Assembly (NCBI GenBank): GCA_964618725.1
Contig: CAZUBK010000003.1
Span: forward strand, 10,236-74,235
Origin: an uncultured Pseudomonadales bacterium
GTDB lineage: Bacteria; Patescibacteriota; Microgenomatia; UBA1400; Chazhemtobacteraceae
Direction: 5' to 3'
Length of the DNA: 64,000 nt
The notes beneath the pieces were generated by a model, which had not been told where the DNA came from, made no database searches, and saw only the letters and a list, made by a program, of their open reading frames with translations. The translations under genes were made by a program, and so were the position numbers. Positions 29,159 through 53,179 of the stretch are shown here, piece by piece. Positions within the stretch are counted from its first letter, which is position 1, and each line of letters opens with the position of its first letter.

Positions 29159-30043
29159 ATGCCAAACACAAAACCCCTTTTCTCTGTCATCATTCCCAGC
29201 CTCAACGAAGAGAAGTTCCTTCCCCGGCTCTTAGAAGATCTTGGCCACCAAACCAGTAATAACTTTGAAGTCATCCACGTCGATGGTAAGTCTGAAGATG
29301 CCACTCTCCACCTCGCCAAAGGCTACGAAAAAAGTCTTCCCAGTTTTATCCAAATTATCTCACCCATTCGAAATGTTAGCCATCAAAGAAATCTTGGTGC
29401 CAAGGCCTCTCAGGGCCAATTCCTTCTCTTCATCGATGCCGACACTCAACTCCCTCAATATTTTCTCGAAGGCCTCTCTTTTCAACTCCACAAGGATCCC
29501 GCAGATATCTTTACCACCTGGGCCATCCCTGATTCCAAAAAAACCGCTGATCAAGCCCTCATTACCCTCATTAATTTCGGTCTGGAAATCAGCAAGTTTG
29601 TCGAATCTCCCATCGCCGTCGGCGTCTTCATGGGCTGCTCTGCCGCGTCTTTCCAGACAATTGGAGGCTTCCCCGAAGATGTCAAATACGGTGAGGACGA
29701 AGATTTTGTCAAAACAGGCTTCAAAAAGAAACTTGATTTCAAAATCTACCAAGAACCGCGTTTTATCTACTCACTCCGCCGTTTCCGCAAAGAAGGGACT
29801 CTTACCACTCTCCAACAAATGGCTAGTAAACGTCTCCATGCCCTCACAGGCAACAGTAAGAGCTCAATTTTCAAACCCAAAGGCTATGCCATGGGCGGTC
29901 ATATTTTTGCCAGTGATGACCCTAATCAGACCCTTCTCGATCGCATCGATCTCTTTATTCATGACCTCAAAGACAAAGCCCTCCCCAAAAAACGCCAACA
30001 AAAGATAAAAGCTTTTCTTAAGAAACTCTCCACCGATCTCTAG
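29159..30043 (+). CDS. Family 2 glycosyltransferase
   Basis: FSVIIPSLNEE and DAD (FIDADT) motifs of GT-A fold. Confidence 0.7.
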   Translation: MPNTKPLFSVIIPSLNEEKFLPRLLEDLGHQTSNNFEVIHVDGKSEDATLHLAKGYEKSLPSFIQIISPIRNVSHQRNLGAKASQGQFLLFIDADTQLPQYFLEGLSFQLHKDPADIFTTWAIPDSKKTADQALITLINFGLEISKFVESPIAVGVFMGCSAASFQTIGGFPEDVKYGEDEDFVKTGFKKKLDFKIYQEPRFIYSLRRFRKEGTLTTLQQMASKRLHALTGNSKSSIFKPKGYAMGGHIFASDDPNQTLLDRIDLFIHDLKDKALPKKRQQKIKAFLKKLSTDL

Positions 30044-34360: not shown

Positions 34361-36061
34361 CTACATTGTCCTCACTTCCTCTACCGACGTCACTTCATTC
34401 AAACTTTTATCATCCCTAAACCTGACTAATCGAGGGAACCTCAATGCCACTCCGCCACTATGAATCGGCGATCGGGTTATCTCATCCGCCGCTATCTCCA
34501 CCACCAATCCGGGATCAACCCAAACATCTGGGTATAGATTCTTGTCTACTACGTACTCTTTCGGCCTAGTGGTACGTATTAACCTGTCCAACCTCTTCTT
34601 CATTTCCCTAAACTGCTCATCTGACAATCCCGTCCCTATCTTGGCAATTGTGACTACTTCATCTCCCCTTCTCACTCCCACCAGGAAAGCACCCAAACCA
34701 AAGATAGATCGCTTACCTCTGCCAGCATAATAGCCCATCACTACACAATCCAAAGTATCCGAAAGTTTTGCTTTCGCTTCTTCTACTTCCTTCATCTTCA
34801 CCCACCTCCAGCCCGTTCTCCCCGGTACGTATTTGCTTCCTAACATTTTCACCACCACTCCTTCTAGTCCTTGTTTCAATAATTCACGATGCGTCTTCTC
34901 AATTTTTTCCGCCTCATCAGTCGTCCAGTAATCATCGACCACTAACAGTCTTTTGTCCTTTATCGTTTCTTTTAAAATCCTCCGCCTTTCTTCATAGGTC
35001 TTGTCAATCAAACTCTTGCCGTTCTTGTACATCACATCAAAAACAAAGAACTTTAATGGCACCTTTTCCGCTTGTTCACCTATCCCATGTTTTCTTTTTC
35101 TGGTAATTGTCATCTGAAAAGACAACATTTTCTTGGTTGTAGGATCAAATCCAACTGCTTCACTGTCCAACACCAGTTCGTCTGCTGATACATCCTCTCC
35201 CATTTTTGCCAACTCGGGAAACATGTGACTTACTTCTTCTAAGTTTCTCGTAAAAACTCTGACAAAACCTTTCCCTCCCCTCCTAAAATGAATCTGAGCC
35301 CTAAGCCCGTCAAACTTCGGCTCCACTGCCACCTCGCCCATTTTCTTCACCATCTCTTTTGGCGACTTAAGTCTTTGGCACAACATCGGGCTAATCGGTA
35401 TCCCTAGTGTCGCCTCAATCTCTACCATCGCCCGTTCAATCCCTTTTTTCTTGATATCCTCTACCAACTGTCCAATATCTGGCTTAATTTGGTAAGCCAG
35501 CTCCAGTTGATCCTTCAGACTCTTGTCTCCCCTTTCCATCACTGATATGGCATCTAAAATCGTCTTGTCCGAAAAGCCCAATCTTAGTTTTCCCATTACA
35601 ATCCTCACCACATACCGGGCTGACAATGACTCCATCTTCTGAATTAATCTCGCCAAACCTTCTATCTTTCTTTCTTGAGAACCCGCCCCCTCATCCCCCG
35701 CTATCTCCATTAATCGCCGATATACTCCACTTACATCACCCTCACCCCTTTCCGATGGCTGCATTTCACTTAGTTTCTCCGCCACCACTCCTAAGTCACC
35801 CAACTGTTTGTATAGTTTCCCCACCCTCTCTTCCGTAACTACAAAGCCACTTGCCAACGACTTCTGCACTTGTTTTTCTGCTAGATTAAACTGCACCCTG
35901 GCAAACGACGGCCCCAGTTGACCTAAAGAGAGATAGATAAGTGGTTTCACCTCTGACTCATCCACGTTCTTCAGTAGATTGGCCAATATCTCCGTCATCG
36001 TGTTTCTCGACGCCGTGTTTTCCAACTCTCTAAATATCTCCGCTAACTCTATGAATTTCAC
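34361..36061 (-). CDS. ATP-dependent DNA ligase
   Basis: EPKFDGLRAQIH (KxDG adenylation motif I). N-terminal DNA-binding domain plus adenylation/OB domain layout. Confidence 0.8.
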   Translation of the reverse strand: MKFIELAEIFRELENTASRNTMTEILANLLKNVDESEVKPLIYLSLGQLGPSFARVQFNLAEKQVQKSLASGFVVTEERVGKLYKQLGDLGVVAEKLSEMQPSERGEGDVSGVYRRLMEIAGDEGAGSQERKIEGLARLIQKMESLSARYVVRIVMGKLRLGFSDKTILDAISVMERGDKSLKDQLELAYQIKPDIGQLVEDIKKKGIERAMVEIEATLGIPISPMLCQRLKSPKEMVKKMGEVAVEPKFDGLRAQIHFRRGGKGFVRVFTRNLEEVSHMFPELAKMGEDVSADELVLDSEAVGFDPTTKKMLSFQMTITRKRKHGIGEQAEKVPLKFFVFDVMYKNGKSLIDKTYEERRRILKETIKDKRLLVVDDYWTTDEAEKIEKTHRELLKQGLEGVVVKMLGSKYVPGRTGWRWVKMKEVEEAKAKLSDTLDCVVMGYYAGRGKRSIFGLGAFLVGVRRGDEVVTIAKIGTGLSDEQFREMKKRLDRLIRTTRPKEYVVDKNLYPDVWVDPGLVVEIAADEITRSPIHSGGVALRFPRLVRFRDDKSLNEVTSVEEVRTM

Positions 36062-37164
36062 CTTATTAAACTCTTAAGGATATATTTAGCTCCTTTGGTT
36101 CTTCCTTTCTTTCTAACTAATCCTTTCTTAATTAATCCTTTCAGATCTCTTAAGATTGTATCATCGCTCACCTCGGCAAACACCGCTCTCATCTGTATCA
36201 AAGTAATCCAGTCTTTTGCTTCCATATAACTTATCAAGTTTATCTGCCGCTCATTCAAAGCAATTTGCCGATTCAGTCTCTCCTGCACCTGAAGATCTAC
36301 TGTCAACCGTCTCACTTTTTGTTTTGTTTTTTCTGTTTCGTCCCGTAGCAGCTCACTCCACATCTCCATCCAAGCCGTCAGATCCATCTCTTTTTCCGCC
36401 TGCACTAGCGCTTGATACCAATCTAACAAGTTCTCTGATCTGACTTCTTCAAGTCCCACTAGTCTCCTCTCCGACAGCCCCTCGATCGCCAACATAAAAA
36501 AGACAAAGGCCCGAGTGATTACATTACTCTTCGTCCTAAAGGGATAAACCCTACTCAGCTCAAAATCAGTTATCGCCACTTTCAACACCGGGTGTAATTC
36601 TCTTGCCTCTCTCGTGTTCAACCAAGCAAATAGATCATTAATCTGAAAACTTACTTCAACCGCATTCGGTGGTCGAAAAACAAAATTACCCATCCCCACC
36701 TCACCAAGTTGCTCCTTTCTCCACTCCCCAATCTCTTCCACAGAAACCAATTTCTCTAAGATCAATGTCTCTATCTGTAATAGCAACTCCTTACTATAGA
36801 TATAGCTCCCTCCTCTCCGTCTCTGCATCACTATCCATTGATCAATAATCTTCAACCCATTTCTTAAATTCATCACTTCCTGCACTTCACTCTCTCGTCC
36901 TCTTATCCCTACTCTCGCTCCTATTTCCGAAGCAACATCTCCTCTTAATGGGTCCTCTTGGATGATTTTCTCAATTTGATGCTGATCTAACCCGTTCCCT
37001 TCTACCCTAAGGCTAAACAGTATCTGTTTCACTATTACTTCTTCTCGCAATTTCATTTCCCAAGAACTTACCAGGGGAGTTATTCCAATCAACTCTTTCG
37101 CCGCTTCAATTCTAGCTACATCAACAAGTGTTTTGTTACTTATTCTAAACCGAGGAAAATACAT
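36058..37164 (-). CDS. Fic-family-like protein with degenerate catalytic motif and C-terminal winged-helix
   Basis: SLRVEG matches the Fic inhibitory-helix motif [ST]xxxE[GN]. The position of HPFx[DE]GNGR is occupied by YPFRTKSNVITR. Basic wHTH-like C-terminus. Confidence 0.4.
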   Translation of the reverse strand: MYFPRFRISNKTLVDVARIEAAKELIGITPLVSSWEMKLREEVIVKQILFSLRVEGNGLDQHQIEKIIQEDPLRGDVASEIGARVGIRGRESEVQEVMNLRNGLKIIDQWIVMQRRRGGSYIYSKELLLQIETLILEKLVSVEEIGEWRKEQLGEVGMGNFVFRPPNAVEVSFQINDLFAWLNTREARELHPVLKVAITDFELSRVYPFRTKSNVITRAFVFFMLAIEGLSERRLVGLEEVRSENLLDWYQALVQAEKEMDLTAWMEMWSELLRDETEKTKQKVRRLTVDLQVQERLNRQIALNERQINLISYMEAKDWITLIQMRAVFAEVSDDTILRDLKGLIKKGLVRKKGRTKGAKYILKSLIR

Positions 37165-37264
37165 CTTCCAATTCTCGCAGATTATGCGGCAAAAAGCAAT
37201 TTATTCTAATTTACCTGGTCATTTTATGCTAAAATAGACAGGTACTTTAATTGGAGGTGTCACA

Positions 37265-37672
37265 GTGAAGAAAAAAATTCTTTTTTCTCTCTCCGCTTTA
37301 TTCTTTCTTTGTATTTTGATTCTCTTTCTCGTTCTCTTTTTTTCTCCAAGCTGTACGCCAGGCGATCCTTACGCCAATCCACCGATACCCAGCCTTACAG
37401 AGCCGAGTTGTAGTTTTAATACCCCATTCCGCTCCTTACCACATTTAGATGGTTCATTCTCATTGTCCTCGCCAAGAATTTACCTTAGTTTTTGGTGGTT
37501 CTACAAACCATTTTCTCTAGACTCTTATCTTGGTTTTAGAAGCTGCTCTGACTTTTTGACAAATTCATCTGTTTACTCTTGTTCTAAATTGTCATTCAGT
37601 GTCAACTCCAATGATAGCCATACCGGTTTCTACTACGACACCATTCAAGGTTTCGACATAATTAGTAACTAA
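37265..37672 (+). CDS. Small secreted Cys-rich protein (GTG start)
   Basis: GGAGGTG SD then GTG. Signal peptide MKKKILFSLSALFFLCILILFLVLFFSPSC. Six Cys. Hairpin terminator at 37686..37706. Confidence 0.45.
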   Translation: MKKKILFSLSALFFLCILILFLVLFFSPSCTPGDPYANPPIPSLTEPSCSFNTPFRSLPHLDGSFSLSSPRIYLSFWWFYKPFSLDSYLGFRSCSDFLTNSSVYSCSKLSFSVNSNDSHTGFYYDTIQGFDIISN

Positions 37673-37723
37673 ATTGAGTCTATCAAAGCCCGATCTCGGG
37701 CTTTTTCCGTGTAAGATACATCT

Positions 37724-38105: not shown

Positions 38106-38435
38106 ATGCATCAAGAAGCTCTTCACGAAGCTCTCAACCTTCTTAGCGAGGCCATTAAGGCCATGCGCGTTAAGGGCCTTTGGGAAACCGAAGGACTCAA
38201 CATTACCATTAAACTACAAACTCAATGGCTAGATATCCAGCGATGTCCGTGGCCTGGTTGCAAAGAAGGACGAGCCGACCATAATTTATGGGAAGTTTCG
38301 AGCCACACCATGGTAGTAGTTCCAGAGATTCTTTTACATTACGCAGAAGCCGGACACTGGATCTCCTACACCGATATGTCCGCTAAAGACCAAAAGACCT
38401 TAATCAGTATCTTCATCATTGGATATAAGTTCTAG
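38106..38435 (+). CDS. Hypothetical protein (109 aa)
   Basis: ORF followed by hairpin terminator at 38445..38471. Confidence 0.4.
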   Translation: MHQEALHEALNLLSEAIKAMRVKGLWETEGLNITIKLQTQWLDIQRCPWPGCKEGRADHNLWEVSSHTMVVVPEILLHYAEAGHWISYTDMSAKDQKTLISIFIIGYKF

Positions 38436-50127: not shown

Positions 50128-50159
50128 GAGGCCATTCTACTCCAAAATTCTAAGAAAGT

Positions 50160-50230
50160 AGCAGGGGAGAGAATTGAACTCTCGACTTAGCGATTATGAG
50201 CCGCTCACTCTACCACTGAGTTACCCTGCC
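50160..50230 (-). tRNA. tRNA with anticodon CAT (Met elongator or Ile2/lysidine type); CCA not encoded
   Basis: Hand-folded cloverleaf: acceptor GGCAGGG. D-arm ACTC/AGTGGTA/GAGT. Anticodon stem AGCGG/TCGCT with loop CTCATAA. T-arm GAGAG/TTCAATT/CTCTC. Py11:Pu24 gives an elongator-like D stem. Confidence 0.7.
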
Positions 50231-51142: not shown

Positions 51143-51214
51143 TGCGGGCGGTAGGTCGGTATTCTAAGAAGGCTCATAATCTTCTCTAACCAGGTTCGAC
51201 TCCTGGGCTCGCAA
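51143..51214 (+). tRNA. tRNA with anticodon CAT (second CAU tRNA; Met/fMet/Ile2 undetermined)
   Basis: Hand-folded: acceptor TGCGGGC/GCTCGCA (one G-U). D-arm TAGG/TCGGTAT/TCTA (A11:U24). Anticodon stem GAAGG/TCTTC with loop CTCATAA. T-arm CCAGG/TTCGACT/CCTGG. No CCA. Confidence 0.6.
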
Positions 51215-51280
51215 CCCGAAGTTCTCGTAGAGAACGTAGGTCCTGAGCTCAAAAAAGCGAGGGACGATCACAATTCTATT

Positions 51281-53072: not shown

Positions 53073-53107
53073 AAGAATAGTCCTTCTATCAATCTAAGTC
53101 AATGCTG

Positions 53108-53179
53108 TGGGCGACTCAGGGCTCGAACCTGAAACCAATTGTGTATAAGACAATCGCTCTACCATTGAGCTAGTCGCCC
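53108..53179 (-). tRNA. tRNA-Ile with anticodon TAT (UAU), predicted AUA decoder
   Basis: Hand-folded: acceptor GGGCGAC/GTCGCCC. D-arm GCTC/AATGGTA/GAGC. Anticodon stem ATTGT/ACAAT with loop CTTATAC (U33, A37, anticodon UAU). T-arm TCAGG/TTCGAGC/CCTGA. Discriminator A. Confidence 0.65.

Follow-up and report, generated by a model that had tools for sequence, protein, structure and literature searches.

A Microgenomates Fic protein with a degenerate active site, encoded next to a DNA ligase gene, as a candidate DNA-binding regulator

We analyzed a stretch of 64,000 nucleotides from an uncultured, tiny-genome bacterium of the Microgenomates (contig CAZUBK010000003.1 of assembly GCA_964618725.1), which is referred to below as the window. 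It contains a gene, here called fic, that encodes a class II Fic protein whose active site is degenerate and whose C-terminal domain is a winged helix-turn-helix (wHTH). A gene for an ATP-dependent DNA ligase is located directly downstream, and its GTG start codon overlaps the TGA stop codon of fic by 4 nt (GTGA; junction AGGTGAAA). Because of this overlap, the two genes are probably co-transcribed and translationally coupled. The other neighbours of fic in the window are a 135-amino-acid (aa) open reading frame (ORF) and a gene for a DUF5654 protein. A hidden Markov model of the family, run against every open frame of 60 aa or more in the window (359 in total), did not reveal a second Fic gene, and Rfam did not detect structured RNAs between positions 30000 and 42000. 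An assembly artefact is unlikely, because an identical Fic protein and the same ligase junction are present in the independent Logan assembly of SRR12113420 (L089, 100% identity). As argued below, we consider it very probable that the fic product is a catalytically dead orthologue of active Fic proteins that is maintained by selection. The features discussed here are listed in Table 1.

Table 1. Features of the fic region, other features of the window, and further loci with a degenerate fic gene.
Feature	Position	Strand	Remarks and basis
Pseudo-Fic gene (fic)	36058..37164	-	ORF, ATG start, 368 aa; class II Fic fold and C-terminal wHTH, degenerate active site
N-terminal helix, residues 10-28	37081..37137	-	Secondary structure of the model, conservation table
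SLRVEG, residues 51-56, auto-inhibitory motif remnant	36997..37014	-	Family and FICD alignments
YPFRTKSNVITR, residues 207-218, degenerate counterpart of HPFx[DE]GNGRxxR	36511..36546	-	phmmer alignment to FICD, family alignment
C-terminal wHTH, residues 301-368	36061..36264	-	Pfam, model, conservation; recognition-helix block VSDDTILRDLK, wing KKGRTKGAKY
ATP-dependent DNA ligase gene	34361..36061	-	566 aa; Pfam DNA_ligase_A_N, _M and _C; GTG start
Dyad CGCATAATCTGCGAGAAT (CGCA-N5-TGCG), candidate operator	37171..37188	-	Recurrence upstream of fic; unique in the window
Putative -35 hexamer TTGCTT	37194..37199	-	17 nt upstream of GAGAAT; our own reading, not called by the consensus scan
ORF between fic and the NAD(P)HX dehydratase gene	37265-37672	+	135 aa; called as a gene in the Logan assembly
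ORF between fic and the NAD(P)HX dehydratase gene	38106-38435	+	109 aa; called as a gene in the Logan assembly
tRNA-Met(CAT)	50158-50230		ARAGORN
tRNA-Met(CAT)	51143-51216		ARAGORN
tRNA-Ile, anticodon TAT (UAU)	53107-53179	-	ARAGORN
Degenerate fic gene of L103	347-1426		Other locus
Degenerate fic gene of L008	6001-7089		Other locus
Degenerate fic gene of L090	341-1441		Other locus

The Pfam profile Fic/DOC (PF02661) matched the protein with 29.5 bits (gathering cut-off 24), and among PDB sequences the best phmmer match of its Fic core was human FICD (E 2e-7). An AlphaFold2 model based on a 50-sequence alignment had a mean predicted local distance difference test (pLDDT) score of 91.3 and a predicted template modelling (pTM) score of 0.78. 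Foldseek matched the protein to more than 40 Fic structures with a probability of 1.00. Matches over the full length were Dde_2494 (4rgl; E 3e-13), CbFic2 of Coxiella (8cil), CccR (7xux), SoFic (3eqx/3zcn) and a Fic protein of Mycobacterium marinum (7cb8), and FICD was matched over the Fic core. A first-pass annotation of this DNA had called the product Fic-like, while leaving room for the possibility that it lacks a Fic fold and that its SxxxEG sequence is fortuitous. This possibility can be set aside: the profile, the sequence search, the model and the structure comparison all find the fold, and the motifs are homologous to those of other Fic proteins (see below).

As in SoFic, a single chain combines an N-terminal dimerisation helix, a Fic core and a C-terminal wHTH. 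According to the interfaces described in the literature, CbFic2 and SoFic dimerise via the counterpart of the N-terminal helix, which in the window's protein keeps the family-invariant residues N10, L13, E20, A21 and E24. The C-terminus had been described as basic and winged-helix-like, and this is borne out: residues 301-368 have an isoelectric point of 10.2, the model places three helices and two strands in a winged helix at residues 305-363, and residues 302-354 gave weak matches to HTH_DeoR and MotA. The recognition-helix block and the wing are as conserved as in the canonical orthologues. The inhibitory motif is intramolecular, and not encoded by a separate small antitoxin gene as in class I FicTA modules. 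The PADLOC model “SoFic” matched the protein with 82.8 bits (E 7e-24), whereas it scored 21.4 bits with the SoFic equivalog model of NCBIfam (NF046030), which has a cut-off of 550 bits.

A homologue search over 5.8 billion proteins resulted in 147 matches. Nearly all of them are 343-397 aa long and originate from Patescibacteria/Microgenomates (Curtiss-, Woese-, Roizman- and Gottesmanbacteria), and those that have been given a name are called “Fic family protein”. The signature HP[FY]x[DE][GA]NGRxxR is present in 112 of 120 aligned homologues, and GTHxEGN in almost all. The protein of the window belongs to a small clade in which the signature is degenerate. It is identical to P0001 (motif YPFRTKSNVITR), and the other members are P0002 (78% identity, QPFETGSNIIIR), P0003 (55%, QPFEFGSDRVIK) and P0004 (49%, QAFSSGSDRIAS). 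Among the matches listed in one metagenome scan and one genome scan, no further clade member was found above 44% identity.

At the position of the catalytic signature HPFx[DE]GNGRxxR, the phmmer alignment places VYPFRTKSNVITR opposite IHPFIDGNGRTSR of FICD, and the family alignment agrees. Hence, the loss of the catalytic His and of GNG claimed in the first-pass annotation is real: Tyr stands in place of the His, G-N-G is gone together with the acidic residue and the first Arg, and only P, F and the last Arg remain. We then considered all positions that are at least 90% conserved among the canonical members. Besides H207, N213 and G214 of the signature, residues T52, H53, R92, H132, H200, D231, D243 and Y249 are replaced in all four clade sequences, which share the substitutions S213, an acidic residue at position 200, L52 and W269. 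The flap-region residues G146, R149, G159 and P165 are kept in all four, and the clade also keeps every invariant of the wHTH (L303, R306, Q307, S333, D335, T336, L338, L344, K352, G354, T356, K357 and Y361).

A match to the inhibitory pattern [ST]xxxE[GN] means little by itself, since 0.30 matches are expected by composition for a protein of this size and one was observed; it was dropped as sole evidence for not being significant, and alignments were used instead. In a 121-sequence alignment, SLRVEG falls on the columns of the family motif GTHxEGN, and the family profile aligns this block to the inhibitory TVAIEG of FICD. SLRVEG is a genuine counterpart of the motif because these columns are homologous, and it lies, as in other class II proteins, on a helix N-terminal to the Fic core with its Glu aligned to the inhibitory Glu. 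The earlier statement that the inhibitory helix is retained holds for E55, G56 and N57 and fails for T52 and H53, whose conservation among canonical members is 96-98% but which the whole clade has lost. P0004 has additionally lost the inhibitory Glu. The Glu retained in the window's protein is more likely to be vestigial than functional.

The genomic context is shared with proteins that have an intact active site. The gene order Fpg - RecF - NAD(P)HX dehydratase - DUF5654 (on the opposite strand) - Fic - ATP-dependent DNA ligase - DedA/VTT - QueA - P-type ATPase is present in the window and in the contigs of the degenerate P0003 and P0004, the canonical P0007 and P0013, and P0015, which has Gln in its motif. 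The P0007 cluster includes the Fic protein QHO63041.1 of Ca. Chazhemtobacterium aquaticus, and the window is thereby assigned to the lineage of this organism. The window's protein is the positional orthologue of the canonical Microgenomates Fic-wHTH protein and not a paralogue. We examined 93 non-redundant Microgenomates loci (numbered within L001-L169), 76 of which extend at least 900 bp downstream of fic. An ATP-dependent ligase gene of the Lig1 type, with N, M and C domains, is located directly downstream on the same strand in 74 of these 76. In 20 loci the two genes are separated by at most 5 nt and frequently overlap by 4 nt; gaps of 6-350 nt are found in most of the others, L001, for instance, having one of 10 nt. 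Fic homologues of other phyla (at most 27% identity) do not have a ligase gene as neighbour. We found no mention of the Microgenomates Fic-ligase pair in the searchable literature.

A degenerate signature is also present, separately, in P0015-17 (QPFSDGNGGVAR) and P0111 (SPFASHNLETAL), and in the metagenome loci L103 (YPFKSGSMKTAR) and L090 (HPFTIGNGRTAR), the latter being a mild case. In a neighbour-joining tree, which calls for caution because of its long branches, the window's protein, P0002, L001 and L002 form a single clade in 100 of 100 bootstraps. L103, L008/P0016 and P0111 are placed outside this clade, and L103 joins it in only 3 of the 100. The distance to the outgroups is 1.08-1.46 for motif-degenerate lineages versus 0.73-0.86 for canonical sequences, and is raised in L103, L008, L090 and P0111 as well. 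L103 and L008/P0016 (YPFKSGSMKTAR and QPFSDGNGGVAR) have kept the wHTH and the downstream ligase gene, and L103, L008 and L090 the wHTH block and the promoter dyad described below; P0111 was assessed by its motif and tree position. We read this pattern as indicating that the catalytic His was lost at least four times in a single orthologous group, counting the clade of the window.

To assess selection on fic, the three full-length clade members (window, L001 and L002) were compared. Synonymous sites are saturated within the clade, so the NG86 estimate of synonymous divergence could not be computed, and four-fold degenerate sites are 0.30-0.40 identical against a random expectation of 0.26-0.28. 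Selection was therefore judged from ratios of nonsynonymous divergence (dN), four-fold-site identity and ORF integrity in place of dN/dS. The three ORFs encode proteins of 367-368 aa, contain no frameshift and are 49-57% identical at the amino-acid level. Since the proteins have remained this similar and full length while synonymous sites are saturated, fic is under purifying selection.

Within the clade, dN is 0.37-0.46 for Fic and 0.19-0.24 for the ligase, compared to 0.26 and 0.33, respectively, in the canonical pair L004-L007. Likewise, the ratio of Fic to ligase identity is 0.66-0.80 in pairs that involve the clade and about 1.0-1.6 in most canonical pairs, the exceptions being L010-L015 (0.65) and L015-L020 (0.68). 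Between the degenerate clade and its nearest canonical orthologues, the identity is 39% in the N-terminal part, 40% in the Fic core, 39% in the linker and 62% in the wHTH. Compared to distant members of the family, the corresponding values are 35%, 32%, 32% and 49% for the degenerate clade, versus 53%, 45%, 50% and 51% for the near canonical orthologues. The N-terminal and Fic parts of the degenerate proteins thus evolve roughly twice as fast as those of canonical orthologues, and this increase is domain-specific: the wHTH of the degenerate proteins is as conserved as that of the canonical ones (49% versus 51% to distant members).

Upstream of its ATG, fic is preceded by the arrangement TTGCTT-N17-(TGC)GAGAAT-TGGAAG-ATG, which contains the dyad CGCA-TAATC-TGCG. 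The dyad overlaps GAGAAT (37171-37176), a putative TGn-extended -10 hexamer, and ends 6 nt before the ATG. A generic sigma-70 consensus scan called a different pair, TTAGCA-N18-TAGAAT (37232-37203), instead of the proposed -35/-10 pair; with that promoter, the dyad would sit just downstream of the transcription start. Under either reading, the dyad is at a usual site of repressor action, within or just downstream of the gene's own promoter as in the case of CccR (see below). An apparent intergenic stretch of 560 bp upstream of fic was discarded as such, since it consists mostly of the 135-aa plus-strand ORF with its ribosome-binding site and terminator; what is left as genuine intergenic sequence between the divergent genes measures about 100 bp.

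The dyad recurs at other loci. The family consensus upstream of fic is roughly CTTGTwTTTTCCGCAAAAnnTGCGATAAT, and it is found at loci whose proteins are merely 32-55% identical. Of 90 loci, 47 have a site [CT]GCA-N5-TGC[AG] no more than 120 bp upstream of fic. The strict form CGCA-N5-TGC[GA]nn[AG]AT was counted in 31 loci, and some loci have variants with 2-4 tandem units resembling TGCGrnAAT. Screening both strands of the 520 kb of analyzed loci for the strict form gave seven other matches, all of them at most 150 bp upstream of fic. In the window, the dyad is the sole site with up to two mismatches, and TGCGANAAT occurs once. Because it was found only upstream of fic, both in the 520 kb and in the window, the dyad is not a general promoter motif. 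Recognition-helix sequences and the presence of the operator showed no usable association. The pair TGCA...TGCA of L004, which looked like a compensatory half-site change, was dropped as such because 4 double and 13 single changes were counted over the 47 sites.

Only 6 nt separate the end of the proposed -10 hexamer from the fic ATG, compared to 8-9 nt in several orthologous loci, and no Shine-Dalgarno sequence is present at a normal distance (window 37162-37176). If the proposed promoter is real, the fic transcript may have little or no leader.

Together, these data suggest the following scenario. The gene would encode a pseudoenzyme. Its canonical orthologues, class II Fic proteins of the AMP-transferase/de-AMPylase type with a wHTH, are encoded directly upstream of the ATP-dependent DNA ligase gene across the Microgenomates. 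In the lineage of the window, catalysis appears to have been abandoned: besides the anion-hole GNG and the catalytic His, an Arg that binds phosphate and seven or more further near-invariant residues have been replaced. Purifying selection has nevertheless preserved an intact protein, and its dimerisation helix and wHTH are no less conserved than those of active orthologues. The most likely surviving function would be the second, catalysis-independent activity known from CccR and SoFic: a dimer may bind through its wHTH to the CGCA-N5-TGCG dyad that overlaps the -10 hexamer of its own promoter, and may thereby control, presumably repress, transcription of the fic-ligase operon. We infer both the binding and the ensuing repression. 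As a whole, a pseudoenzyme kept as DNA-binding (auto)regulator of the fic-ligase operon is the explanation that we find reasonably likely; in operator binding as the role of the protein, taken separately, our confidence is middling. This explanation is the best supported because the dimerisation helix, the constraint on the wHTH and a fic-specific dyad are kept while everything required for phosphoryl transfer is lost. It is also favoured by the relatives CccR and SoFic, both of which bind their own promoters, and by the H192A mutant of CccR, which still represses. The suggestion in the first-pass annotation that this pseudo-Fic acts as a DNA-binding or regulatory protein is thus the one that we favour.

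Several observations weigh against this explanation. The strict dyad is missing from about half of the loci, including L002 of the window's own clade, and the half-sites do not show convincing covariation, given the double and single changes counted above. The operator of CccR has a different geometry, consisting of two 10-bp repeats that are 26 bp apart. The dyad also overlaps the promoter, so that it might be conserved on account of the promoter as such or of a different regulator. Moreover, the Fic body is about 50% conserved within the clade and could carry a function itself, for example by binding a target through the flap residues G146 and R149.

The last point leads to an alternative in which the protein works as a scaffold or binder without catalysis: the Fic body, though dead, would dock its former substrate, or the ligase, via the flap and sequester or recruit it, as BepC does with GEF-H1, with DNA binding serving only to localise it. 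The four flap invariants kept throughout the clade, a Fic core that is about 48% identical within it despite saturated synonymous sites, and the tight pairing with the ligase gene are in line with such a role, for which BepC, with its non-canonical motif and its relocalisation of GEF-H1, is a precedent (PMC8401265). However, no member of the family has a known target, and the rate increase is strongest precisely in the Fic body, which argues for relaxed interaction surfaces. The adjacency of the ligase gene may reflect co-regulation only. We consider this alternative unlikely, although it is compatible with a role as DNA-binding regulator. Even less can be said for a non-canonical enzyme, the other option raised in the first-pass annotation, in which a remodelled loop (PF..[GK]S[ND]) would support another chemistry or use another nucleotide, like Doc (kinase) or AnkX (phosphocholination). 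Other activities are on record for Fic proteins with non-canonical motifs (PMC8401265; PMC4454073), C. fetus Fic2 is toxic with a degenerate motif (PMC5651007), and the substitutions shared by the whole clade could be taken as signs of a rebuilt site. But the documented alternative chemistries all keep the catalytic His, and Fic2 H184A is not toxic. Here, the His is replaced by Tyr or Gln, further invariants of the nucleotide pocket are lost, and the motif is different in each clade member (YPFRTKSNVITR, QPFETGSNIIIR, QPFEFGSDRVIK, QAFSSGSDRIAS), which points to relaxation rather than to a new conserved active site. We therefore judge a non-canonical activity to be improbable, and less likely than a DNA-binding or regulatory role.

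A raised evolutionary rate and the rarity of the clade (four protein clusters among 5.8 billion proteins) would also be expected of a functionless relic, a decaying gene that persists because too little time has passed or because it is translationally coupled to the ligase gene; the 4-nt overlap could select for an open frame whatever its product. Yet three lineages with saturated synonymous sites have kept an intact ORF of 367-368 aa, and the wHTH has retained all of its invariants, at a rate of evolution that does not exceed that of active orthologues. Translational coupling would put no more than the final few codons under constraint, and in L001 there is no overlap at all. Decay without function is in our opinion very improbable. 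Finally, the PADLOC match would make fic a SoFic-type anti-phage defence gene. Such a gene would be expected to encode an active enzyme and to lie in a variable island, whereas the neighbourhood of fic consists of housekeeping genes and is fixed in the 93 Microgenomates loci, and the catalytic site is destroyed; the match reflects a shared architecture only. Despite this match, the defence reading was rejected on the basis of synteny, and we attach next to no likelihood to it. Annotation pipelines that use PADLOC SoFic may label this catalytically dead fic in its housekeeping context as anti-phage defence.

The ligase is itself an AMP-carrying enzyme. A broader and rather doubtful conjecture is that fic and the ligase gene form a conserved two-gene regulatory unit in the Microgenomates, in which Fic bound to the dyad operator would set the expression of the ligase, and in which canonical members would also AMPylate or de-AMPylate a DNA-associated target, possibly the ligase. 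If this were true, repeated and independent loss of catalysis with retention of the wHTH would mean that the transcription-factor role is the indispensable one, and that an enzyme has turned into a pure regulator several times in one orthologous group.

Fic proteins of class II that carry a winged helix are widespread. Recent studies of CccR and SoFic suggest that such proteins are bifunctional, being both enzyme and transcription factor. The locus described here amounts to a natural separation-of-function experiment, in which a syntenic orthologue is active in some lineages and dead in sister lineages, with putatively at least four independent losses. Pairs of active and dead orthologues provide a comparative handle on which activity is dispensable. 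Microgenomates cannot be cultured and have minimal regulatory repertoires. The nearly universal Fic-ligase pair and the dyad provide a testable operator-regulator hypothesis for a replication/repair gene in the Candidate Phyla Radiation.

Other features of the window deserve mention. The two ORFs located between fic and the NAD(P)HX dehydratase gene gave no match with Pfam or PADLOC and are missing from the syntenic loci L001 and L002. The 135-aa ORF has GGAGG before its GTG start and encodes a hydrophobic N-terminus (MKKKILFSLSALFFLCILILFLVLFF), and it is followed by a hairpin with a T-run (~37683-37705). In most bacteria, AUA codons are read by a lysidine-modified CAU tRNA, and a tRNA with anticodon UAU, as encoded in the window in the vicinity of two tRNA-Met(CAT) genes, is uncommon. 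The window (1-64000) has an extreme and uniform disparity of G and C between its strands: the GC skew is between -0.18 and -0.48 in every 1-kb bin, and the cumulative skew falls linearly without a turning point. This agrees with the strand disparity that was reported as unusual in Ca. Chazhemtobacterium aquaticus and in UBA1400 Microgenomates related to it (PMC7143001), the lineage to which the Fic orthologue also points.

Degenerate Fic motifs are already known, from the Beps of Bartonella, C. fetus Fic2, Doc, AvrB and clades predicted to be inactive, and so are Fic-wHTH transcription factors. The searchable literature did not yield a description of a naturally dead class II Fic-wHTH protein or of its recurrence in one orthologous group, nor of the conserved promoter dyad of the Microgenomates Fic-ligase pair. 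The closest known systems differ from the window's protein in instructive ways. The canonical orthologues (QHO63041.1 and the P0007 cluster; 43% identity) share its position, length, domain order, wHTH, downstream ligase and promoter dyad, but their motifs read GTHVEGN and HPFIEGNGRVAR, and their rate of evolution relative to the ligase is about half as high. FICD/HYPE of humans (4U04, 6I7G) has the same Fic core (family profile E 7e-34), with the class II inhibitory Glu at the aligned position. In contrast, it is an active bifunctional enzyme that acts on BiP, and it has TPR domains in place of a wHTH.

BepC and Bep8 of Bartonella and C. fetus Fic2 likewise retain the Fic fold with a non-canonical signature. 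BepC, for which no catalysis has been detected, binds GEF-H1 and relocalises it (PMC8401265, PMC7842960), and the toxicity of Fic2 is lost upon the exchange H184A (PMC5651007). However, these are class I, FicTA-derived host-targeted effectors or toxins that keep PFxxGN, and Fic2 needs its His, whereas the protein of the window is a chromosomal class II wHTH protein lacking His, N and G.

Among wHTH-containing relatives, the wHTH of CbFic2 binds DNA, which switches this protein between AMPylation and de-AMPylation (PMC10628234). SoFic of Shewanella oneidensis (SO_4266; 3EQX/3ZCN) resembles the window's protein in having the class II motif on an N-terminal helix, a Fic core and a wHTH; it dimerises via the N-terminal helix, which the window's protein keeps, and the dimer binds specifically inside the 100-bp stretch immediately upstream of the start codon of its own gene (bioRxiv 10.64898/2026.07.09.737422). 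Unlike the protein of the window, which is no equivalog of it, SoFic is an active AMP-transferase/de-AMPylase acting on EF-Tu, and the identity in the Foldseek alignment is about 14%. CccR of Yersinia pseudotuberculosis (7XUX) also consists of an N-terminal helical region, a Fic core and a C-terminal wHTH (Foldseek E 8e-11 over about 380 columns). As a dimer, it represses its own promoter through a palindrome, also in the form of the H192A mutant, and its regulatory and toxic activities are independent of each other (PMC9755527). Both genes thus have a dyad or palindrome in their own promoter. CccR, about 14% identical to the window's protein, is nevertheless catalytically active, AMPylates FtsZ and is secreted by a type VI secretion system, whereas the protein of the window lacks the catalytic His and has nothing that suggests secretion.

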